A stretch of 64,000 nucleotides of DNA from Candidatus Omnitrophota bacterium (GTDB taxonomy: Bacteria; Omnitrophota; Gorgyraeia; Zapsychrales; Fredricksoniimonadaceae): assembly GCA_963828495.1 (NCBI GenBank), contig CAWHFJ010000011.1, positions 32,623 to 96,622 of the forward strand. Reading direction: 5' to 3'. The notes under the pieces are model-generated. The model had not been told where the DNA came from, ran no database searches, and saw nothing but the letters and a program-made list of their open reading frames with translations. Shown here one piece after another: positions 7,173 through 51,394 of the stretch. The position numbers and the translations under genes were made by a program. Position 1 is the stretch's first letter; the number at the start of each line of letters is the position of its first letter.

Positions 7173-9581
7173 TTATGAGCAGAAAACTATCGCATGCGTT
7201 GAACCAGAGGCGCTGGATGCCGGCCCTGTTCCGGCAGCATTCGTGGCTGTTACTGTAAATGTATAAGACGCCCCATAGGTCAATCCCATCACAGTCAACG
7301 GACTCCCTGTTCCTGTCCCTGTCAAAGAACCGGGATTAGATGTGGCTGTGTAGGACGTGATCGCGCTGCCACCATTTGATGCCGGCGGTGTGAAGGTAAC
7401 GGTCGCTTCTGCGGCGTCCGCGGGGCCCCCATCTATATAATATCCACACTGACTGGCGGCAACACCGGTTGGCGCTCCAGGCACGGTGTAGGGTGTGACT
7501 GAATTAGACGCGCTTGATGCTGCCGAAGTCCCTACGGAGTTTGTTGCCGTGACTGTAAATGTATACGACGTGCCATTGGTCAAGCCTGTGACAGTCCCCG
7601 GACTGCTTGTGCAAGGCTGTATTTGACCGAAACTTGACATTACCGTATAGGACGTTATCGCGCATCCGCCATCTAAGGTCGGTGGCGTAAACGTCACTGT
7701 GGCCTGTGCATTGCCTGCAGTCGCGCTACCTATGACTGGAGGCGCAGGGACACTACAGCTAGACGAACAAGTATTCTTAACAGCCACATTATGTACTAAG
7801 AAACTATCCGCATAATAGTCATGACCTCCGTCTAATTTGGGGTTATAAACAACGGAATCTTTAGCTGTTTTAAATTCAATCTTGTTAATACGCACCTTGC
7901 CGCTAAGAGTAACAAGCTCGTCGCCTATTTTAAGTTGTCCTATTTTAAGCTTAGGGTTTTCCTTCCTGGCTATTTGAGGATTAAGCGCCTTCCATCCATC
8001 GGTGGTCATAAAACTATGGCTGTCCGTCACAAAATACCGCCCGCCGTTAAAGGCGTAAACCTTCCAGTCTTGCCTGCGCCTGATCATAAGCTCAAGTAGC
8101 TTGTTATGCCCGCCTTGAGCACCTTGAAGAATATCCCCACCTTTAAGATCTTGAATTTCTACGATCCTGCCGTTGGCTAGTAAGATCTTAGTTCCTGAGA
8201 CAAAACATCCCAAATAATGGCAAATGCTGCTGCAACATTGTGAATCACTAGAACAGCCCAAGCCATTATTTACACAGGGTGTCACCGCATTAGATGCGCT
8301 TGATGCAGGGCCTGTGCCAACAGCATTTGTCGCTGTAACTGTAAATGTATATGATGTGCCATTGGTCAAGCCCGTGACCGTCTGGCTGGTGCTTAATCCC
8401 GACGATGTCAATCCGCCAGGACTGGACGTGACCGTGTAGGATGTGATCGGGCTGCCGCCATTGGATGCAGGGGCGCTGAAAGTAACGGTCGCTGACGCAT
8501 TACCTGCCGTCGCGCTCACACCGGTTGGAGCGCCCGGAACAGTATACGCAACCGGTGTGACCGCATTAGATGCGCTTGATGCAGGGCCTGTGCCTACGAC
8601 ATTCGTTGCCGTTACTGTACATGAATAAGAATCACCATTGATAAGACCGGTCACCGTCTGTGAAGTGCTTAATCCTGATGATGAGCCTACAACGTCTACC
8701 ATTAGACTCTGACATACTACAGTATAAGATGTGATCGGGCTGCCGCCATTGGATGCAGGGGCGCTGAAAGTAACGGTCGCTGACGCATTACCTGCCGTCG
8801 CGCTCACACCGGTCGGAGCGCCCGGAACAGTATAGCATACACCGCTGATACAGCTGCCTGCACATACACTGCCGCAGCTGCCGCAATTACTCGCATCTGA
8901 ACTCAACGTGCTGCAAGTGCCATTGCAACCGGTCTGCCCGCCGGCACAGCAAGTCCCATTAGTGCAAATCTGACCGGCACTACATACGGTTAAGCTCGTC
9001 CCGCAATAGCCGGTATTCGAACTGACATCCACACAAGTGCCATTGTAACAACGCTTACCGCCGGTACAGCCGCCGCAGCTGTCTGTGGCTGCGCCTGCCC
9101 CTGCCGTGTTGGCCGCACCAACATTACAGCCGCTGCCGTTGGTGACACACACAGCATTGTTGCTAATTGCAACTGAACCATTAGGGCCTATGCTCACCGA
9201 ACCATTGCCTGTCGGGCCTTTAGAATAAAGCACATAATATTTCCCGTTGGCAGAGACCTGATAACCATATTCCGTGCTATTGCCAGCGATGAAAGGATCG
9301 TACAAAACACTCCTAATAACCTTAGGGGACGCTTCGGTTAAAGTAGAAGCCCCCAGAGAAGTGCTTGAATTAGGATAGGTATTGTTGTTATTTAAATAGT
9401 AGGCTGTGACCGCCGCCTGCATGGTCTTAAGTTCAGCCTGGGCCTGGGAGAGTTTCCCCGAGTTCTGCATACCTTTATACATCGGCAGCCCGACGCTGAT
9501 CAAAATAGCCGCAACGGCAAAAATAACAAACAACTCTAATATGGTCTGGGATTTCTTATTAAGGAAGGCGGAAAAATTCAT
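7173..9581 (-). CDS. Giant pseudopilin fusion: GspG-like domain + Cys-rich region + 2 FN3 + Cys knot + Hint (BIL) domain + 2 FN3
   Basis: Single 802-aa ORF.
- aa 1-144 form a GspG-like pseudopilin: KKS|QTILELFVIFAVAAILISVGLP with Glu5, AELKTMQAAVTAYYLNNNNTYP, and LYDPF...YGYQV...YYVLYSKGPTGNG.
- aa 145-250 carry about 24 Cys.
- FN3 units begin PGAPTGVSATAGNASATVTFSAPASNGGSPITSYTV and end SYTFTVTATNAVGTGPASSASN.
- The Hint domain is aa 459-598. Confidence 0.85.
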   Translation of the reverse strand: MNFSAFLNKKSQTILELFVIFAVAAILISVGLPMYKGMQNSGKLSQAQAELKTMQAAVTAYYLNNNNTYPNSSTSLGASTLTEASPKVIRSVLYDPFIAGNSTEYGYQVSANGKYYVLYSKGPTGNGSVSIGPNGSVAISNNAVCVTNGSGCNVGAANTAGAGAATDSCGGCTGGKRCYNGTCVDVSSNTGYCGTSLTVCSAGQICTNGTCCAGGQTGCNGTCSTLSSDASNCGSCGSVCAGSCISGVCYTVPGAPTGVSATAGNASATVTFSAPASNGGSPITSYTVVCQSLMVDVVGSSSGLSTSQTVTGLINGDSYSCTVTATNVVGTGPASSASNAVTPVAYTVPGAPTGVSATAGNASATVTFSAPASNGGSPITSYTVTSSPGGLTSSGLSTSQTVTGLTNGTSYTFTVTATNAVGTGPASSASNAVTPCVNNGLGCSSDSQCCSSICHYLGCFVSGTKILLANGRIVEIQDLKGGDILQGAQGGHNKLLELMIRRRQDWKVYAFNGGRYFVTDSHSFMTTDGWKALNPQIARKENPKLKIGQLKIGDELVTLSGKVRINKIEFKTAKDSVVYNPKLDGGHDYYADSFLVHNVAVKNTCSSSCSVPAPPVIGSATAGNAQATVTFTPPTLDGGCAITSYTVMSSFGQIQPCTSSPGTVTGLTNGTSYTFTVTATNSVGTSAASSASNSVTPYTVPGAPTGVAASQCGYYIDGGPADAAEATVTFTPPASNGGSAITSYTATSNPGSLTGTGTGSPLTVMGLTYGASYTFTVTATNAAGTGPASSASGSTHAIVFCS
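7788..8207 (-). other. Hint / bacterial intein-like (BIL) domain, 140 aa, no endonuclease
   Basis: aa 459-598: CFVSGTKILLANGRIVEIQDL (intein block A with Cys1), VTDSHSF (TxxH block B), and VVYNPKLDGGHDYYADSFLVHN (blocks F/G ending His-Asn). The residue after Asn is Val (HN|VAVKNTC). Hand counts give ~38% GC on the lines at 7801 and 7861, against 60% on the flanking FN3 line at 8461. Confidence 0.85.
8441..8834 (-). repeat. Intragenic tandem FN3-unit repeat with near-identical DNA
   Basis: 8441..8546 and 8729..8834 are 105/106 identical; the only difference is ccggtTggag versus ccggtCggag. The offset is 288 nt, or 96 codons. A second pair, 8281..8318 and 8557..8594, has 1 mismatch at an offset of 276 nt. 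Confidence 0.9.
8832..9149 (-). other. Cysteine-rich region (aa 145-250) of the 802-aa protein
   Basis: CVTNGSGCNVG...DSCGGCTGGKRCYNGTCVDVSSNTGYCGTSLTVCSAGQICTNGTCCAGGQTGCNGTCSTLSSDASNCGSCGSVCAGSCISGVC. These are repeated short C-x-G-x-C spacings. No family name can be assigned by eye. Confidence 0.6.
9150..9581 (-). other. GspG-like pseudopilin module of the 802-aa protein (aa 1-144)
   Basis: See the motifs listed for the parent CDS. The class III signal is unusual because Ser, not Gly, sits at position -1 and Gln at +1 (NKKS|QTILE). Confidence 0.7.
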
Positions 9582-12215: not shown

Positions 12216-13325
12216 TTAGTTGCTAACAACCAGGCGAGGCAAATAGGCCCGGATGGCTTGGGTAATAATTGCTGCAGGGATATTGCTGACAATTTTAACT
12301 TGACCGATCTTGGTAACCAAAACAAACCGGTTATGGCCTTTGCTGAATTTCTTATCATGCCGCATTAAATCCAGGATACGATCCAGACGAACACCCTTGA
12401 TTTTTTCCGGTAGGCCGACCTTCGTGATCAACTGATTAATACGCACTTCACAAGGAAGCTCTAAAAGCCCCATAGCCGCAGACATACGCGCCGCAACCCG
12501 CATGCCAAGGCCAACGGACTCGCCATGATGATACAACTTTAACCGGCCCGCGGCTTCCAGCGCATGTCCCGCCGTATGACCGAAATTAAGGACCGTGCGC
12601 AAATTTTTAGTTTCTTTTTCATCCTTGGTGACGATCTGCGCTTTAATCTCTGCGCAGCGACGGACAACATAATTTAAAACCGCGCTTTCCCCTTGGTAAA
12701 ATTTCTTATAATTAGCCTCAATAAAACCAAAAAGCTTAGGGTCACCAATGACCCCGTATTTAATGGCCTCAGCTAAACCGTTGCGGATTTGCCGCGGGCT
12801 TAACGTTTTCAGCAGCTTGGTATCGGTCACCACCAGCTTGGGCTGATAAAAAGCGCCTACCAAATTCTTGCCTGTTTCTAAATCAATGGCGGTCTTCCCA
12901 CCGATGGACGAATCAATCTGGGCCAGCAGCGTCGTAGGCACTTGAATATACGGCACCCCGCGTTTGTAAATGGCCGCCACAAACCCGCCCAGGTCCCCAA
13001 TCACCCCCCCGCCTAAAGCTATGATAAAAATCTTTTTATCTACATCATACGCGCTGATTTGCTTGATCAAACCCAACGCACAAGCAGCACTTTTGCTCTT
13101 TTCTCCCTGCGGGACATGTAAAATTTTAACCGTGTACCCTGCTTGCTTGAGGGCGGCAGATAATTTGCCCCCATGCAAGGCTTTAACCCGCGGGTCCGTA
13201 ATAATCAGCGCATCTTTCCCCAAACCCAGATGACGGATATACCGGGGAAATTCTGCTAAAATACCGTGACCAATGGCAATAGTATACGGATTATCTTTTA
13301 AACGGACAAAAACCTTGGCCATCAT
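12216..13325 (-). CDS. aroB: 3-dehydroquinate synthase
   Basis: GGGVIGDLGGFVAAIYKRGVPYIQVPTTLLAQIDSSIGGKTAID and LNFGHTAGHALE. The start was moved to the ATGATG at 13325. Confidence 0.9.
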   Translation of the reverse strand: MMAKVFVRLKDNPYTIAIGHGILAEFPRYIRHLGLGKDALIITDPRVKALHGGKLSAALKQAGYTVKILHVPQGEKSKSAACALGLIKQISAYDVDKKIFIIALGGGVIGDLGGFVAAIYKRGVPYIQVPTTLLAQIDSSIGGKTAIDLETGKNLVGAFYQPKLVVTDTKLLKTLSPRQIRNGLAEAIKYGVIGDPKLFGFIEANYKKFYQGESAVLNYVVRRCAEIKAQIVTKDEKETKNLRTVLNFGHTAGHALEAAGRLKLYHHGESVGLGMRVAARMSAAMGLLELPCEVRINQLITKVGLPEKIKGVRLDRILDLMRHDKKFSKGHNRFVLVTKIGQVKIVSNIPAAIITQAIRAYLPRLVVSN

Positions 13326-13945
13326 ATTTGTACCCCGATCCAATAACCCACCTGCTCTATCAAAGGATAAATAAATCTTAACATGCCCAGCTGCAAAAAC
13401 ACAATCAATATAATAATACCAAAAGGCTCCAAATGGCTATAGTAATACGCCAATTTCGCAGGTAAAAGTGCGGTCACCACCCTCGAGCCGTCCAAAGGCG
13501 GTATAGGGATCATGTTAAAAACCGCCAGAGTCAAATTCAGCATCACGGCCCACCCACAAATATTAGCCACACTGGATAAAGGCGGCCATATATAGCCTCT
13601 GGAAAAAATCCACGCTAGCGCGATATTCGTCAACGGCCCGGCCATGGCCACTAGCGCCATCCCCGTACGCCGCGGCTTTAAGTTTCTGAAATTAACCGGC
13701 ACCGGCTTGGCCCAACCAAAAAGGAACAAAGATCGGGTCAGTCCAAAATAATGCGCTAAAAAAAGACCCCCGGGCACCAAAAAACTGCCTACAGGATCCA
13801 TATGCTTGATCGGATTTAAAGTCAAACGGCCTCGATCACGGGCCGTGGGGTCGCCGAGTTTATACGCACACACCCCATGCGCGTATTCATGCAGGACAAT
13901 AGCGGGAACTACGGCAAAAACGATTAATAAAAGGACTTCTACCAT
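13322..13945 (-). CDS. Site-2 protease family protein (peptidase M50)
   Basis: 207 aa, polytopic. It has the HEYAHG zinc motif and the NMIPIPPLDGSR motif. Confidence 0.85.
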   Translation of the reverse strand: MVEVLLLIVFAVVPAIVLHEYAHGVCAYKLGDPTARDRGRLTLNPIKHMDPVGSFLVPGGLFLAHYFGLTRSLFLFGWAKPVPVNFRNLKPRRTGMALVAMAGPLTNIALAWIFSRGYIWPPLSSVANICGWAVMLNLTLAVFNMIPIPPLDGSRVVTALLPAKLAYYYSHLEPFGIIILIVFLQLGMLRFIYPLIEQVGYWIGVQI

Positions 13946-13950
13946 AACTC

Positions 13951-14077
13951 TACTTTCTCAAATAATACAAGAGATGTGCCGCTTCCTTAAAAACAATTAA
14001 ACCGGTTTCAGAACGGTGTCGTTTCCTTAAATATTCATATTAGAAAAACGACGGCCCTCAATGTACATATTAGAAAT
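13951..14077 (-). repeat. Conserved intergenic element, copy A (upstream of the M50 protease gene)
   Basis: About 85% identical by eye to 40406..40533. It contains CATATTAGAAA twice, exactly 30 nt apart (14036..14046 and 14066..14076), and a GTCGTTT/AAACGAC inverted repeat. It ends in TACTTTCTCAAA next to the start codon. Confidence 0.8.
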
Positions 14078-14090
14078 TCGGCCTACCATA

Positions 14091-14867
14091 TTAAAGGACC
14101 AATGAAATTTTATTGATATGCAAAAGAGGATACGTCCATTTTTTATGCGGATTTACAATAACAGTCCCCTTGACATCAACAACCGTATGAGAAAAAAAAG
14201 ACATGTGCGGTATGTCCTGCAGATAATACACAGGTTTACCGTCTATGGTTAACTCATAATGCACCCCTGCCTCAGGGGCCTCACTCAAAGGCTCCAGCTC
14301 CCCACGTAGGGCAACCTCCAGGCGCCCTGCACCCAAAAGACTGACAGTCGTCGGAGGTTTGACCTGCCCAATCAACATGGACGCCGGCACATCAGCAGAT
14401 ATAAATTTTAGAAAATCCTGATGGACCCAGGCGATGGTACCTGCCACAGGCATCACACGGCACCACCCATTGGCCTGTTCTAAAATGGTAACCCAAGTCC
14501 CTTTTTTAATCTGCCCCAAAGACGCCGCATCCCAGCTGGAGGACGCGCGCACATTCACCCTATCTCCTAAAACTTCAGCAACAAGACTCCCTTCCTTAAT
14601 CTGCAAATAATCCGATCGGATATACGCTTTGGTCGTCGGCAAAGGCTGAATTTTAACCCATTCATAGTTCCGGCCTAAAACAACGACCTTAGTCCCCCTG
14701 TTTAACTTATCGATCTTTTCAAAATTAGTATTGGAGCCGGCACGGACATTGACGGAATCTTTGGATACAGCGGCCAGAAAAGGAAAATGCTCATCAGCAT
14801 ATCCCTGCACTGTCAGTACAATGGTCAGGAATACCGATGAGCAAATCGTGGGGATGATCTTCAACAT
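14091..14867 (-). CDS. Secreted protein with two bacterial SH3 domains
   Basis: Signal peptide, then SVNVRAGSNTNFEKIDKLNRGTKVVVLGRNYEWVKIQ and RVNVRASSSWDAASLGQIKKGTWVTILEQANGWCRV. Confidence 0.7.
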   Translation of the reverse strand: MLKIIPTICSSVFLTIVLTVQGYADEHFPFLAAVSKDSVNVRAGSNTNFEKIDKLNRGTKVVVLGRNYEWVKIQPLPTTKAYIRSDYLQIKEGSLVAEVLGDRVNVRASSSWDAASLGQIKKGTWVTILEQANGWCRVMPVAGTIAWVHQDFLKFISADVPASMLIGQVKPPTTVSLLGAGRLEVALRGELEPLSEAPEAGVHYELTIDGKPVYYLQDIPHMSFFSHTVVDVKGTVIVNPHKKWTYPLLHINKISLVL

Positions 14868-18627: not shown

Positions 18628-18650
18628 TAAAATTGCTTTCTCAAAAAATA

Positions 18651-19136
18651 TTACTTTCCAATCCTAACAATCTCCGCTTTGATTTGCCCCGCTTCAATAC
18701 GGATAAGGCCATAAGAGAAAAATTGGGCGCGATTCAGATCATTAGGACTGCCCGGATTAAAGTACAACACACAACCGATTTGTTCCTTAAACGCTCGATG
18801 CGAATGACCGAAAATGACCACATCTATCTTATCATTTTTAAAAGAAGCCATGGCATTTTTTAACGCTTCCAGGCTTCTGCCTATATGGCCGTGGGTCACC
18901 CCAATTTTAAAATTATCGCAGACAATGATATCTTTTAAAGGTAATTCTTTTTTTAATTCCTCTGTGTCCTGGTTGCCCTGCACGGCCCTAAGGGGCGCTA
19001 AGGCTTTAAGCTGTTTGAATGCCGGCATGTCAGAAATATCGCCCGCGTGAATAATGAGATCCACTGTTTTAAAGCGTTCAATCACCTGAGGAGGGATGTT
19101 TAAGGAATGCGTATCTGCAAGTATACCGAGGATCAT
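18651..19136 (-). CDS. YfcE/MJ0936-family metallophosphoesterase
   Basis: MILGILADTHS, HAGDI, GNQD, and VIFGHSH. The start at 19136 overlaps the upstream stop by 4 nt. Confidence 0.85.
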   Translation of the reverse strand: MILGILADTHSLNIPPQVIERFKTVDLIIHAGDISDMPAFKQLKALAPLRAVQGNQDTEELKKELPLKDIIVCDNFKIGVTHGHIGRSLEALKNAMASFKNDKIDVVIFGHSHRAFKEQIGCVLYFNPGSPNDLNRAQFFSYGLIRIEAGQIKAEIVRIGK

Positions 19137-23691: not shown

Positions 23692-24726
23692 CTACCTGGA
23701 CGCAAAAACATTAGCAATGTCTACTAAATCCATATTCACCAGCTTACGCTGGGACACGGCTTCTTCCATATCCACATAACGGATTTTATTTTCCCGCAGG
23801 CTCACCATTTTCCCAAATTTATGTTCTTTGACGAGCTCCACCGCTTTAACTCCAAAACGTGTCCCCAGGACACGGTCAAACGCCGTCGGAGACCCTCCGC
23901 GTAAAATATAACCCAGAACGCTCACCCGCGTTTCATAACTGGTATTATCTTCAATGGCCTTGGCCAAAAATTCGCCGACACTGCCGAAACGGCGTTTCTC
24001 CATAAGCGGTGTCGGAGTAGTGGTTGAACGCGACAGGTATCCTTCAATTTTAGTGCCTTCAGAAATGACAATAATACTAAACGGTCTGCCGCGCTTATGC
24101 CTCTCATGCAACAACTCATAAACTTCTTCCAGGTTCACCGCAATTTCAGGGATCAAAATAATATCAGCCCCGCCGGCAATACCGGCCTGCACGGCCAGCC
24201 AGCCGGTATACAACCCCATCACTTCAACGACCATGATGCGATGATGGGACTCAGCAGTGGTATGCAAACGGTCAATACATTCGGTGGCGACATTAACAGC
24301 CGTATCAAAACCAAACGCATAATCCGTGCCTGACAACGCATTATCAATGGACTTAGGCACACCCACAGCCTGAATAATCCCTTTTTTATGCAGACTCAAG
24401 GCCGCTTTAAGAGTGTCTTCACCGCCAACGACAATCAGCGCATCCATGCCGCTTCTGGCATAATTATCCTTAATTTTTTTGACCTGCTCTTCATCTTCCA
24501 AAGGGTTAACGCGGCTGGTCCCCAAAATAGTACCACCTTTATCCAAAATTCCGGACGTGGACTTAACATCCAGGACGCGCATATCATTTTCGATGAGACC
24601 CAGCCACCCATTCTTGATCCCGGTGACCACATAGCCTTCCTGCATACCTTTACGCACCACCGCACGTATGACCGAATTAAGCCCCGGACAATCGGCCCCG
24701 CCTGTCATTACGCCAATCTTCCTCAT
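23692..24726 (-). CDS. pfkA: 6-phosphofructokinase
   Basis: IGVMTGGADCPGLN, VVGGEDT, PKSIDNA, MGLYTGWLA. Confidence 0.9.
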   Translation of the reverse strand: MRKIGVMTGGADCPGLNSVIRAVVRKGMQEGYVVTGIKNGWLGLIENDMRVLDVKSTSGILDKGGTILGTSRVNPLEDEEQVKKIKDNYARSGMDALIVVGGEDTLKAALSLHKKGIIQAVGVPKSIDNALSGTDYAFGFDTAVNVATECIDRLHTTAESHHRIMVVEVMGLYTGWLAVQAGIAGGADIILIPEIAVNLEEVYELLHERHKRGRPFSIIVISEGTKIEGYLSRSTTTPTPLMEKRRFGSVGEFLAKAIEDNTSYETRVSVLGYILRGGSPTAFDRVLGTRFGVKAVELVKEHKFGKMVSLRENKIRYVDMEEAVSQRKLVNMDLVDIANVFASR

Positions 24727-24777
24727 AAAATATGACCTTTCAAAATTATTCCAGAGAGATAACGTTCCCTCAAGGAA

Positions 24778-39078: not shown

Positions 39079-40399
39079 ATAAATAATGAGCTTCCGTATA
39101 AGAAAACATCATGTCCGCCTCAATAGCCACTTCCCCATTGACACGCCCGACACCTTTAATATTTGCCGTACGTTCCCTGTCGCGGATAATTTCAACCTCC
39201 AGCAACAGTTGGTCTCCGGGAGCAACCACCTTACGGAACTTCACATCCCCAATAGACATAAATAAAGCTACTTTACCACGATGCGCACCGCCGGTCAACA
39301 CTACAACCCCCGCGGTCTGCGCCATGGCCTCGACCATAATCACTCCCGGCATCACCGGCCTCTGAGGGAAATGCCCTTGAAAAAAACCGTCATTCATCGT
39401 CACATTCTTGATGCCGACCCCTTTCTTGCCAGGCTCGATTTCAATGACCCTATCGACAAACAAAAATGGATACCGATGAGGCAAAATTTTCATAATCTGA
39501 TCAATATTAAAAACCCGCCCCTGGCCCGGGACTTCTACAGGCACTATGTCTGGCGTTGCATATTTCTGGCGCTGGGCGTCTATCTTTTTGATCAAAGCCC
39601 TGTTTAAAGCATGCCCGCTCTTAGTCGCATACACAGCCCCCTGCACAGAGTAACCTAACAGAGATAAGTCACCCACAATGTCTAAAACCTTATGTCTAGC
39701 GCATTCATCCGGGAAACGCAATGTATTCTGCACAACCCCCTTCTGTGCAATGACGAGTGTGGTTTTATAATCCGAACCACGGCCCAAACCCTGCTGGCGA
39801 ATATCCTGCACTTCGGATTCAATGCAAAAGGTGCGCGATGGGGCCAGGTCACGGGCAAAAGATACTGGATCAAAGTCCAAGGCAAAAAATTGCGAACGCA
39901 AAAAAGGATGGTCGTAATCCAGAGTATACGCAATGTGCAGTTTATCATGCGGCACAATCACAATCGTCGATGTTTTATTGGCAACGACAATGGGTTCTTG
40001 AATAACAAAAATATTTTTATCCGTGGACTGTTCTACAGACCCCGCTTCCTGCAAAGCCTTTAAAAACTCCAGGCTGCTGCCATCCATGCCGGGAACCTCT
40101 TCGCCGTCTATCTCAATGGTCAGATTATCAATACCCAAGCCCGTTAAAGCCGCCATTAAATGTTCAATGGTACAAACGCGCACCCCCTGATATTCAATAG
40201 CGCTACAACGGACGACCTTCACATCCATCACCGCGGTCGACAAAGAGACTTTAATCGACGGGTTGCCGGGTAAATCCGTGCGCACAAAACAAATGCCTGT
40301 ATCCTCCGCCGCGGGTTTTAGCGTCATGTGAACATTAACGCCACTATGCAATCCGATACCGGAAAGAGTGACAGGATTTTTTATCGTTTGTTGCTTCAT
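39071..40399 (-). CDS. Bifunctional UDP-3-O-acyl-GlcNAc deacetylase / 3-hydroxyacyl-ACP dehydratase (LpxC-FabZ fusion)
   Basis: LpxC half: QQTIKNPVTLSGIGLHSG, EHLMAAL, HKVLDIVGDL. FabZ half: ILPHRYPFLFVD, FFQGHFP, PVMPGVI. Confidence 0.9.
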   Translation of the reverse strand: MKQQTIKNPVTLSGIGLHSGVNVHMTLKPAAEDTGICFVRTDLPGNPSIKVSLSTAVMDVKVVRCSAIEYQGVRVCTIEHLMAALTGLGIDNLTIEIDGEEVPGMDGSSLEFLKALQEAGSVEQSTDKNIFVIQEPIVVANKTSTIVIVPHDKLHIAYTLDYDHPFLRSQFFALDFDPVSFARDLAPSRTFCIESEVQDIRQQGLGRGSDYKTTLVIAQKGVVQNTLRFPDECARHKVLDIVGDLSLLGYSVQGAVYATKSGHALNRALIKKIDAQRQKYATPDIVPVEVPGQGRVFNIDQIMKILPHRYPFLFVDRVIEIEPGKKGVGIKNVTMNDGFFQGHFPQRPVMPGVIMVEAMAQTAGVVVLTGGAHRGKVALFMSIGDVKFRKVVAPGDQLLLEVEIIRDRERTANIKGVGRVNGEVAIEADMMFSYTEAHYLYG

Positions 40400-40405
40400 A
40401 AATAT

Positions 40406-40533
40406 TACTTTCTCAAATGAATCCTAGAATAGTGCCGCTTCCTTAAAAATTATTAAACCAATTTCAGAACAGTGTCGTTTCCTTGTATTCATATTAGAAA
40501 AACGACGAACCTTAATGTACATATTAGAAATAC
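40406..40533 (-). repeat. Conserved intergenic element, copy B (upstream of lpxC/fabZ)
   Basis: It aligns with 13951..14077. It has the same TACTTTCTCAAA end next to the ATG, the GTGCCGCTTCCTTAAAAA block, the GTCGTTT/AAACGAC inverted repeat, and two CATATTAGAAA motifs at 40490..40500 and 40520..40530, again 30 nt apart. Confidence 0.8.
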
Positions 40534-40541
40534 GGCGGGCA

Positions 40542-41573
40542 TTATTTTCTTTTCTCCAACTCTGCAATACGCTTTTCCAAAGCTTTGATTCTTTCCACAT
40601 ACTTATCCAGCCTTTGGATATGCGCATTATTTCTAAACGCATTCTTGATCGGCTGGGCCGGAGATCCAAAAACCTGCTCGCCTGCCCTAATAGACTTGCT
40701 CACCCCTGATTGGGCCGCCACCACTGCCCCGTCCCCAATTTCTATATGACCCACAAGACCTGCCTGGGCCGCCAAAATCACACCATCACCTATCCTCGTA
40801 CTGCCGGCGATGCCCGCTTGAGCGACAATCAAACAATGTTTGCCGATAGTGACATTGTGCGCTATTTGTACCAAATTATCGATTTTTGTCCCCTCACCGA
40901 TAACTGTTTTATCAAAACGCGCGCGGTCAATAGTGACATTAGCCCCGATTTCCACATCATCCTCTATGACCACACTCCCCACTTGAGGGATTTTCATATG
41001 TTTGCCATCAACCGTCACATAACCATAACCATCAGAGCCGATGACAGTCCCGCTGTGAATGATCACGCGCCGACCTACAGAAACATTCTCGCGCAAAATG
41101 ACGTGAGGATAAAGCAAACAGCCTGCTTTTAAATGCGTATCATGCCCCACATAACAGCCGGCATAAAGCACGCATCCTTCCTCAATGACCGCATTGGCCT
41201 CAATTGTCGTATAAGGACCGACAGCCACATCCCTGGCTAATTTGGCTTTTGGAGCAATGACAGCGGTGGGATGAATACCACGGGGTTTATAGTCAGGGGC
41301 ATCCTTTAAGAAATGGTTGACAACTTTCGAGAAACTTAAAGAGGGATTATCGACCCTGATAACAGTTTTCCCCGGACAGGCAATCTGCCGGGGAACAAGA
41401 ATGACACCCGCCTGCGTGTCAAGAAGCAACGACTCATATTTAGGATTACCTAAGAATGTCAGGTCATCTTTTTTGGCTTCTTTAATCCCTGAAAACCCGC
41501 TGACCAACCGTAAACCGTCACCAACAATCTCCCCGTTAACCAACCGGGCTATATCAGCAACGGTCAGACGCAT
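40542..41573 (-). CDS. lpxD: UDP-3-O-acylglucosamine N-acyltransferase
   Basis: MRLTVADIARLVNGEIVG, long hexapeptide-repeat region, C-terminal coiled coil. Confidence 0.9.
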   Translation of the reverse strand: MRLTVADIARLVNGEIVGDGLRLVSGFSGIKEAKKDDLTFLGNPKYESLLLDTQAGVILVPRQIACPGKTVIRVDNPSLSFSKVVNHFLKDAPDYKPRGIHPTAVIAPKAKLARDVAVGPYTTIEANAVIEEGCVLYAGCYVGHDTHLKAGCLLYPHVILRENVSVGRRVIIHSGTVIGSDGYGYVTVDGKHMKIPQVGSVVIEDDVEIGANVTIDRARFDKTVIGEGTKIDNLVQIAHNVTIGKHCLIVAQAGIAGSTRIGDGVILAAQAGLVGHIEIGDGAVVAAQSGVSKSIRAGEQVFGSPAQPIKNAFRNNAHIQRLDKYVERIKALEKRIAELEKRK

Positions 41574-47552: not shown

Positions 47553-47573
47553 TACTTTTCCCTTCCTTAAAAA

Positions 47574-48137
47574 TTAATTAAACCGGTTCATCGCCACTTG
47601 CGCACCTTCGGTCACCCAGCATGTGACACAGTCTAGTGCATGATTAATAAGATCCGGCAACGCCTTTTTCTGTGCCGGAGTAAAATTAGTTAACACATAA
47701 TCTATTGTATCGCCGACGCCTTGAGGACGGCCAATCCCCATACGGAGACGACAAAATTGATCCGAGGCTATCTGGCCGATAATAGATTTTAACCCATTAT
47801 GCCCTCCGGCACTTCCCGAAGGCCGCAAGCGCACTTTCCCAAAGGACAGAGATAAATCATCACAAATAACCAAAACATCTCCCGGCGCTATACCTTGGCG
47901 GACGAGTAGCTTCTTTACACTCAAGCCGGAATTATTCATAAAGGTCATCGGCATCAACAAAGAGCATGCACAATTTTCCATTTCGGCACGCGCCAAGAGC
48001 CCTTGGGTTGTAGCCGAATTCTGCCAGGAAGCTTTATACCGTGCCGCTAAAGCCTCCAGGACCAAGAAACCAAAATTGTGACGGGTCCATCTATATTGAG
48101 GCCCGGGGTTCCCAAGGCCTACGATCAATTTTGGCAA
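47574..48137 (-). CDS. pth: Peptidyl-tRNA hydrolase
   Basis: LIVGLGNPGPQYRWTRHNFGF, GGHNGLKSI. Confidence 0.9.
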   Translation of the reverse strand: MPKLIVGLGNPGPQYRWTRHNFGFLVLEALAARYKASWQNSATTQGLLARAEMENCACSLLMPMTFMNNSGLSVKKLLVRQGIAPGDVLVICDDLSLSFGKVRLRPSGSAGGHNGLKSIIGQIASDQFCRLRMGIGRPQGVGDTIDYVLTNFTPAQKKALPDLINHALDCVTCWVTEGAQVAMNRFN

Positions 48138-51126: not shown

Positions 51127-51160
51127 ATCCTGCAAATCTTAAATTGCCCAGTCAGGATTC
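51127..51160 (-). repeat. Duplicated copy of the tRNA-Gln 3' end plus downstream flank
   Basis: 51127..51160 (atcctgcAaatCttaaattgcccagtcaggattc) matches 51307..51340 (atcctgcCaatTttaaattgcccagtcaggattc) at 32 of 34 positions, exactly 180 bp apart. The match resumes at gaacctg after a 14-nt hairpin insert (cgggcttcgcccta). Confidence 0.85.
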
Positions 51161-51288: not shown

Positions 51289-51323
51289 ATACCCTTTGAG
51301 GTTCTCATCCTGCCAATTTTAAA

Positions 51324-51394
51324 TTGCCCAGTCAGGATTCGAACCTGAACAACGAGATCCAAATTCTCGGGTGCTACCATTACACCACCGGGCA
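51324..51394 (-). tRNA. tRNA-Gln (anticodon TTG)
   Basis: The reverse complement is TGCCCGGTGGTGTAATGGTAGCACCCGAGAATTTGGATCTCGTTGTTCAGGTTCGAATCCTGACTGGGCAA. It folds by hand into a 71-nt cloverleaf with anticodon loop ATTTGGA. Confidence 0.9.

Follow-up and report, generated by a model that had tools for sequence, protein, structure and literature searches.

The 64,000-nucleotide stretch of Candidatus Omnitrophota DNA analysed here (hereafter, the window; assembly GCA_963828495.1, contig CAWHFJ010000011.1, positions 32,623 to 96,622 of the forward strand) raises the question of why the genes for an M50 protease and for an LpxC/FabZ fusion protein are preceded by nearly the same intergenic sequence. 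A preliminary description, made from the sequence of the window, had proposed a shared cis-regulatory leader or operator coupling lipid A synthesis with the intramembrane protease or, alternatively, a small dispersed repeat family. We conclude with high confidence that the two sequences, copies A and B, belong to a family of insertion elements; the fuller statement, that these are small, non-autonomous, low-copy elements acting as a portable translation-initiation region, we consider probable, if well short of assured. The two copies are located as follows:

13947 to 14082, minus strand: copy A, the long (composite) form, in the spacer that separates the genes for the SH3-domain protein and the M50 protease; identity to copy B, 89%
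40400 to 40536, minus strand: copy B, long form, between lpxD and lpxC/fabZ

The spacers extend from 13946 to 14090 (SH3-domain gene to M50 protease) and from 40400 to 40541 (lpxD to the lpxC/fabZ fusion) on the minus strand, and each copy fills its spacer as had been described, with the stop codon of the SH3 protein at 14091 and the M50 ATG at 13945, the lpxD stop at 40542 and the lpxC/fabZ ATG at 40399. Spacer against spacer, BLASTN gave 88.8% identity over 107 nt (E = 2.4e-27), and a repeat search returned the same pair. The short sequences previously listed as common to both copies were all recovered, namely, the ATG-adjacent TTTGAGAAAGTA (13951-13962 and 40406-40417), the block AAGGAAGCGGCAC (13976-13988 and 40432-40444), the inverted repeat GTCGTTT/AAACGAC, and the 11-mer TTTCTAATATG, which occurs twice per copy at a distance of 30 nt (14036-14046 and 14066-14076; 40490-40500 and 40520-40530). 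Exact matches to the 11-mer are confined to these four sites in the window; with at most one mismatch, there are 6 matches vs. 1.8 expected. Copies A and B are present, unchanged and in the same context, in four independent assemblies (loci L001-L004) and, thus, are not assembly artefacts. Automatic gene calling places an open reading frame (ORF) of 58-81 aa over the end of lpxD and copy B (window 40424-40669; L003 2800-2976, 58 aa); this call is an artefact of the insertion, and its frame is not kept in copy A (2-nt indel).

Orthologous junctions were fetched from relatives, and four pairs of empty and occupied sites were compared, such that presence or absence of the element is polymorphic among close relatives. 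At the lpxD/lpxC junction, the spacer is 5 nt (...GAGAAAAGAAAGTAAtatttATGAAGCAA) in L008 and L009 (LpxC identity 89%), compared to 142 nt in the window, and the two genes share an ATGA stop/start overlap in L010-L012 (85%) and in L013 and L014 (76%); a sister lineage (L028, whose contig matches the window at 92-94% identity over 3.5 kb) has a short form of the element at this same junction. At the SH3/M50 junction, the sister lineage, represented by two independent assemblies (L015 and L016) and 92.6% identical to the window in M50 DNA, has a 1-nt spacer (CCTTTAAtATGTTAGAC) compared to 145 nt in the window, and a 1-nt spacer is found also in a more distant relative (L017 and L018). The junction between the genes for a biotin-lipoyl protein and monogalactosyldiacylglycerol (MGDG) synthase is a clean empty site in the window and is occupied in L010, and the PRC protein/phosphoketolase junction is an ATGA overlap in L032 and L034 (CCAAAG-GAGCATTGATATGA) and is occupied in L025 (CCTAAAG-GCCG...GAGAAAGTAAAGCTTTGG-AAG-GAGCTTTGATATG). 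Window junction A reads CCTTTAA-TATGGTAG-GCCGAA...GAGAAAGTAGAGT-TATGGTAG-AAGTCC and junction B reads ...GAGAAA-AGAAAATAAT-GCCCGCCG...CATTTG-AGAAAGTAAT-ATTTATGAAGCAA, where TATGGTAG and the pair AGAAAATAAT/AGAAAGTAAT, respectively, are the flanking direct repeats:

14083 to 14090, minus strand: left direct repeat of copy A, TATGGTAG, in which the former M50 start codon lies; empty site in L015: CCTTTAATATGTTAGACGTCC
13939 to 13946, minus strand: right direct repeat of copy A, TATGGTAG, holding the M50 start codon in use (ATG 13943-13945; M50 ORF 13322-13945)
40541 to 40550, minus strand: duplicated lpxD end, left copy, AGAAAATAAT, with the stop codon of lpxD; compare the empty site GAGAAAAGAAAGTAATATTTATGAAG in L008
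40404 to 40413, minus strand: right copy of the duplicated lpxD end, AGAAAGTAAT; compare the same empty site in L008

Because the same gene pairs abut or overlap in the nearest relatives, copies A and B are best read from these alignments as lineage-specific insertions flanked by short direct repeats, not as ancestral leaders. The proposed ancestral leader or operator coupling lpxC with the M50 protease does not survive the comparison: copy A is absent in the sister lineage, copy B is absent at LpxC identities of 89%, 85% and 76%, the sister lpxC site has a short form only, and the same element precedes unrelated housekeeping genes. Lack of conservation in relatives had been named in advance as an outcome that would weaken the idea of a regulon, and this is what was found for copies A and B. 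The two spacers are thus similar because they share descent from an insertion, and not because lipid A synthesis and the protease are co-regulated, and a tempting but wrong inference, that of a shared leader coupling the two, is removed.

As a separate observation on the SH3/M50 junction, a relative of the L010 type has there an unrelated spacer of 271 nt (L019 3730-4000, and L020), with a 58-aa antisense ORF call and a shorter SH3 gene (157 aa); the junction seems prone to rearrangement in several lineages.

The alternative offered in the preliminary description, a small dispersed repeat family, is supported by occurrences of the basic form at nine further gene junctions, all unrelated. The family was gathered by a single scan of metagenomes, for which the pattern was taken from the 3' module common to the copies (10 loci), and by BLAST against the fetched loci, the latter yielding two shorter relatives in L010, one at the pth/rpsF junction and one at the biotin-lipoyl protein/MGDG synthase junction. 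Removal of duplicates left ten distinct short forms, and there are ~11 independent sites in all; counts out of 12 below refer to family copies. All copies are small (<300 bp), non-coding and dispersed. Short forms are 65-72 nt long (basic form ~68 nt), compared to ~137 nt for the long form, and their consensus is GGCCGAATTTCTAATA-(4-8 nt)-TTAAGGAAACGGCAC-(3 nt)-TCTAG-(4-5 nt)-ATTTGAGAAAGTA-(5-6 nt)-ATG, the ~68-nt basic form being, in outline, GCCGAATTTCTAATA..TTAAGGAAACGGCAC..TCTAG..ATTTGAGAAAGTA..TTATG(G). Family copies are matched by nhmmer with E-values of 1e-15 to 4e-20, and in the 5' module, which lay outside the search pattern, GCCG, TTCTA and TA are invariant in 10 sequences. The genes downstream of short forms are unrelated, including those for ribosomal proteins L13 and S6, ATP synthase subunit c (AtpE), TruB, glucose-6-phosphate dehydrogenase, phosphoketolase, MGDG synthase, a pilin-like protein and a small membrane protein, to which the window adds M50 and LpxC/FabZ. 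The hosts are uncultured Omnitrophota of a single clade, known from metagenomes of peat and wetlands, plus a few contigs without taxon assignment at the lower G+C values (40-44%), host contigs as a whole having 40-48% G+C; a scan of viral contigs gave no match. For the window itself, named LpxC/FabZ and M50 homologues place the host in Candidatus Omnitrophota.

The long form is a composite of the same family. Each window copy consists of three partial units of the 68-nt family model (nhmmer; model positions 1-27, 3-48 and 20/22-68), which in copy A lie at 14056-14083 (1-27), 14004-14051 (3-48) and 13944-13990 (22-68). The 11-mers are 30 nt apart because they are the 5' modules of units 1 and 2, and unit 2 contributes its family hairpin, noted earlier as the 7-bp inverted repeat. 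A segment of a different kind separates unit 2 from unit 3:

14018 to 14052, minus strand: middle-unit hairpin of copy A, GUCGUUUUU...GGAAACGAC, i.e. the family hairpin with a C-G to U-A compensatory change
13982 to 14009, minus strand: long-form-only segment GAAACCGGTTTAATTGTTTTTAAGGAAG between units 2 and 3; BLAST match to 47562-47588 (92.6% over 27 nt, E = 0.007)
47562 to 47590, minus strand: pth stop/rpsF ribosome-binding-site junction, resembling the long-form-specific segment; not an element copy

The segment GAAACCGGTTTAATTGTTTTTAAGGAAG has no counterpart in short forms and resembles the pth 3' end together with the rpsF ribosome-binding site; at the rpsF locus itself, AACCGGTTTAAT codes for NRFN, the conserved C-terminus of Pth, after which come the stop codon and the Shine-Dalgarno (SD) sequence of rpsF. 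The long form, judging by this resemblance, seems to have captured a piece of the pth/rpsF junction, which accounts for the related block noticed earlier upstream of rpsF and confirmed here by BLAST of 47562-47590 against copy A. In relatives, the pth/rpsF junction holds a short element (L010) or has no spacer (L013). When GTDB-representative contigs were scanned with the pattern GGTTTAATN{2,3}TTTTTAAGGAAG, which targets this long-form-specific, pth-derived segment, there were only three chance matches, in unrelated phyla, and none from this clade, so that the source genome and close relatives bearing the GGTTTAATN/TTTTTAAGGAAG block appear to be missing from the GTDB representatives.

Copies A and B share the long-form interior at 89% identity and differ in their 3' variable segments (ATCTCTTGTATT in A vs. 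TATTCTAGGATTC in B), where B matches the orthologous short form in L028 and A matches other family members; this pattern suggests that copies have converted one another or recombined. In the sister lineage, the M50 site is empty and lpxC is preceded by a short form, so that the long form would have arisen or spread after the split from that lineage. The A-B divergence of 11-16%, vs. ~15% divergence at third codon positions between the window and sister genomes, fits post-split timing, and the overall identities (92-94% between window and sister lineage DNA, 84-89% between A and B) are consistent with recent events.

The family is, as the preliminary description had it, tied to gene starts: at all ~11 independent sites, the element is in sense orientation, with its end no more than 30 nt from the start codon (P ~2^-11 under random orientation). 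The SD-like motif GAGAAAG is kept in 10 of the 12 copies and, in 9 of these 12, lies 7-9 nt before the ATG in use, which amounts to a ribosome-binding site plus start codon of the type found in the REP2 and IR-A repeats discussed below; in the copies of L023/L025, L030 and the L010 pth/rpsF junction, a native GGAAGGAG-type SD sequence follows instead. In the window, the motifs are:

13953 to 13959, minus strand: SD-like GAGAAAG of copy A, within the conserved 3' tail ATTTGAGAAAGTA, 7 nt before the ATG
40408 to 40414, minus strand: SD-like GAGAAAG of copy B, 8 nt before the lpxC/fabZ ATG (40397-40399)

Nearly every copy has a further ATG 3-13 nt upstream of GCCG; this is the former start codon, which either keeps its native SD sequence in front or overlaps the upstream stop codon. 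This old ATG opens an upstream ORF (uORF) of 7-20 codons that stops inside the element, with 20 codons in copy A (14027-14089, TAA inside the element) and 17 codons in copy B (40489-40542), where the ATG overlaps the lpxD stop (TAATG, 40540-40542). A conserved leader peptide was ruled out: the uORFs run in two different frames with different stops, with no conserved reading frame, and A and B differ by a 2-nt indel.

As for the start codon in use, the native ATG of truB in L029 is found 13 nt upstream of the element, and the new one was not copied from it; in the MGDG synthase gene of L010, ATGGTAGCA replaces the native ATGACTCAA in frame, so that in both cases the ATG was supplied by the insertion. 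Since, in addition, the L025 tail ...TAAAGCTTTGG aligns with ...TAGAGTTATGG of copy A, we take the element to terminate, on its 3' side, in ...GAGAAAGTA-nnn-TTATG(G), with a start codon that would be element-borne. Protein N-termini do not distinguish a native from an element-borne ATGG, with MV in 25 of 120 M50 homologues vs. ML in 57, and V, L or I at position 2 of AtpE.

The flanks bear on how the element moves. The 3 nt on each side of it are identical (AAG or TAG) in 8 of the 12 copies, and the longer repeats seen at several sites (ATGAAG, ATGGTAG; 6-8 nt including the ATG) begin exactly at the A of ATG, whereby the 3 nt upstream of the ATG match between left and right copies at about the chance level (~7/18). 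A long target-site duplication including the start codon was rejected, as a repeat that begins exactly at ATG is not predicted by a fixed staggered cut. An ATG-starting repeat fits selection for in-frame replacement of codons 1-2 or microhomology-guided copying.

The latter option leads to an explanation without transposon-type mobility, in which recombination or template switching between similar initiation regions, with microhomology at ATGAAG, ATGGTAG or GAAAGTAAT, produced the copies, and A and B are related through gene conversion. Such a process is compatible with the start of the repeated flank precisely at the ATG in six copies, with the lpxC site, where the native junction AGAAAGTAATATTTATGAAG itself resembles the element tail over ~20 nt, with the shared interior and differing 3' segments of A and B, suggestive of a mosaic origin, and with the fact that no terminal inverted repeats (TIRs) or transposase were seen. 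However, microhomology of 3-7 nt is very short for repeated independent events at ~11 sites, some sites (L023/L025, L030) have only AAG in common with the element flank, and the origin of the first copies is left unexplained; we hold this explanation to be quite unlikely.

The element also contains a conserved hairpin, which raises the question of a function in RNA. RNAalifold on the 10 short forms recovers this 5' hairpin only, with no covariation. Across 12 sequences, the hairpin (GCCG-AA-UUUCU / AGGAA-A-CGGC, 9 bp), in which the pyrimidine tract pairs with the SD-like AAGGAA, is 96% paired; 6 of the 9 pairs are invariant, and the only compensatory change, in which unit 2 of copies A and B has U-A for C-G, counts as one event. 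Another helix claimed earlier, ACCG/CGGT with wobble-preserving changes in copy B, does exist in copy A; it sits in the captured pth fragment, a segment absent from all other family members, and the comparative part of the claim found no support. The statement that the element matches no known RNA family held: an Rfam scan of the window at gathering thresholds gave two tRNAs only, and with E up to 10 there was no hit for copy A and only chance-level hits for a short form.

A structured RNA leader, riboswitch-like or akin to ribosomal-protein leaders and conserved for its fold, would account for the 9-bp hairpin pairing the UUUCU tract with an SD-like sequence and for its constant position 5' of the coding region. 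Yet no Rfam family is found, the stability of the folded long copies is not above that of shuffled sequence (minimum free energy z-scores of -0.5 and +1.3), most of the pairs never vary, with one compensatory event only, presence of the element differs among close relatives, and the cargo genes are unrelated, all of which make this reading very improbable.

At the level of transcription, a sigma-70 scan found one 9-of-12 match in copy B and none in A, which does not exceed the level in shuffled sequence, although the promoter consensus of Omnitrophota may differ, which makes this a weak result; a terminator scan was at the background level and found none. In L030, the element lies in the 5' untranslated region (UTR), downstream of a TTGACA/TATTAT-like promoter. 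An effect at the RNA level is plausible and might come about either through a 5' stem-loop on the processed downstream transcript or through uORF termination followed by reinitiation.

The same data can be arranged into a mobile, functional cis-regulatory cassette comparable to the Neisseria REP2/CREN repeats, in which a trans-acting protein or RNA recognises the hairpin or TTTCTAATA and the genes that acquire the element become co-regulated at the mRNA level; lpxC/fabZ and M50 would then share a control input only as two of many cargo genes. Every copy being in sense orientation, at a gene start and in transcribed DNA, including the 5'-UTR copy of L030, agrees with this possibility, as do the strong conservation of the 5' module outside the search pattern and the maintenance of the hairpin with one compensatory change. 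Against this, the genes of close relatives work without the element, no theme unites the cargo genes, no regulator emerged as a candidate, and neither the promoter scan nor fold stability exceeded the shuffled level. We regard such a cassette, including the shared input to lpxC/fabZ and M50, as unlikely.

The reading of copies A and B as members of an insertion family with portable initiation signals has its own difficulties. The search pattern fixed the 3' module, so that the conservation of this module is partly by construction. The metagenome scan gave no match in a 931-kb contig from a relative (76%) or in a 98-kb sister contig, the presence of both records in the scanned collection being unconfirmed; since neither contig was matched, the result also suggests that the copy number of the family is low. 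There are no TIRs, as the termini, GCCGAATTT (GCCG...) and ...TTATG(G), are not inverted copies of each other; inverted similarity is internal only, comprising the hairpin GCCG.TTTCT/AGGAA.CGGC and a gapped, imperfect resemblance of TTTCTAATA to the reverse complement of the tail. The fetched loci contained neither a transposase nor an autonomous partner, and the ends of the element were not matched a second time in any of them. The length of the flanking repeat varies, being 3 nt in several cases, 6-8 nt (ATG included) in others and ~20 nt at the L028 lpxC site. Finally, strict sense orientation and proximity to start codons are unusual for a neutral MITE (a transposable element of the miniature inverted-repeat class) and could, alternatively, reflect a selected function. 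All of these observations weigh against the reading.

The element has entered junctions where genes formerly abutted or overlapped, and its 3' edge carries an SD-like GAGAAAG and, in 9 of 12 copies, the ATG in use. If the portable-initiation reading is correct, it would serve as a movable translation-initiation region. This property would let it survive in a compact genome even where it sits among the first codons of an essential gene or in its ribosome-binding site, and its conserved 5' hairpin would form in mRNA or in single-stranded DNA. Movement might be effected by a transposase supplied in trans, with a 3-nt NAG duplication, or by microhomology-mediated template switching at ATG-proximal sequence, and the composite long form would have passed between the M50 and lpxC sites, by spread or conversion, once the sister lineage had split off.

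A more far-reaching version, which we offer tentatively as possible if doubtful, is that of a self-contained cassette of hairpin, SD-like motif and start codon that colonises the initiation regions of essential genes and replaces them in frame, turning coupled gene pairs into units of uORF plus reinitiation, and that spreads without TIRs via NAG/start-codon targeting or template switching, with possible shared post-transcriptional control like that of REP2/CREN.

Compared with known small repeats, the closest functional analogues appear to be Neisseria REP2 and Borrelia IR-A/IR-B, followed by ERIC and MITEs. By analogy, the element can be placed as a REP2-like addition to the broad class of small dispersed bacterial repeats, while being neither a MITE nor REP2. 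According to the review PMC3184786, REP2 (CREN) repeats are 120-150 bp long and without TIRs, REP2 and IR repeats occur in a few tens of copies, and REP2 carries a promoter and marks a co-regulated gene set, the contact-induced regulon. The Omnitrophota element, set beside REP2 and IR-A by description, has an SD-like motif and working ATG, a 5' hairpin and no TIRs. Unlike REP2, it has no convincing promoter, most of its copies are operon-internal, its basic unit is half the size, and its host is of a different phylum. The leftover old start codon and uORF are likewise not described for REP2 in the available part of PMC3184786.

ERIC/IRU repeats lie in transcribed intergenic regions, including the inside of operons (PMC3184786). 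The Omnitrophota element shares this placement in transcribed, operon-internal DNA. However, ERIC forms an imperfect palindrome of 127 bp, has TIRs, is flanked by TA and inserts in either orientation, whereas the element described here lacks overall palindromy, is flanked by NAG and lies in the sense direction in every case. ERIC also has shorter and longer variants that result from internal deletions or insertions, which parallel the ~68-nt and ~137-nt forms described here.

The classical MITEs, such as Correia/CREE, RUP and Nezha, are characterised, in PMC3049150 and PMC3184786, by small size, dispersal, flanking repeats and polymorphism. Like bacterial MITEs, the element is small, AT-rich, non-coding and dispersed, has flanking direct repeats and is polymorphic between close relatives; unlike them, it has neither the defining TIRs nor a matching insertion sequence partner among the loci searched, its apparent copy number is low, and each copy lies at a start codon in the sense direction. 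Insertion within coding sequence is tolerated in the case of Rickettsia palindromic elements and BOX/RUP repeats, which can change where ORFs begin or end (PMC3049150 and PMC3184786). In such fusions, the repeat is translated within the host protein, whereas the Omnitrophota element takes the place of the initiation region and has little effect on the protein, with at most the first one to three residues altered.

Full-text literature searches found no description of such repeats in Omnitrophota, and this appears to be the first small dispersed insertion element documented in this uncultivated phylum. The lpxD/lpxC site indicates how an insertion between overlapping essential genes is tolerated, namely, through the ribosome-binding site and start codon that the insertion itself provides. 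If portable initiation is real, the family would illustrate how operons can be rewired in nature at the level of translation. In practice, the element also poses a hazard for annotation, given that start codons are changed and spurious small ORFs are created, as with the 58-aa call in L003.

Several traces that resemble parts of the element were observed, two of them in the window:

24733 to 24774, minus strand: degenerate relic of the 3' half of the element, TTGAGGGAACGTTATCTCTCTGGAATAATTTTGAAAGG, directly upstream of gene 23692-24726; weak nhmmer match (model 21-62, E = 0.2)
18628 to 18650, minus strand: isolated tail-like TTTGAGAAAGCAATTTTA, followed by the ATG of a HIT-family gene; same arrangement in L015 (5455-5477)

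The spacer upstream of the HIT-family gene (18628-18660, minus strand) reads GAAAGTAAtattttTTGAGAAAGCAATTTTAATGAAG, i.e. a 3' tail without the hairpin module, and the preceding gene end GAAAGTAA is lpxD-like; this tail may be a solo remnant left by deletion, or a hint at the source of the tail. In L013 and L014 (18176-18226), a 27-nt mini-form (GGCCGAATTTCTAATAAGGAGCGGCAA) stands in place of the native start region of the MGDG synthase gene, where the KHKRVLL codons are kept with no ATG before them and the gene caller put the start downstream.

Two further features of the window are repeats of other kinds. A 34-nt direct repeat, 94% identical and with its copies 180 nt apart (51127-51160 and 51307-51340), overlaps with one copy the 3' end of tRNA-Gln (51324-51394, minus strand) and looks like an att-type duplication left by integration or excision beside the tRNA. 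The ORF at 7173-9581 (minus strand, 802 aa) contains internal DNA repeats of ~290-300 nt, families D1-D3, which are 65-97% identical, and probably encodes a repeat-domain surface protein next to genes resembling those of type II secretion and type IV pili.

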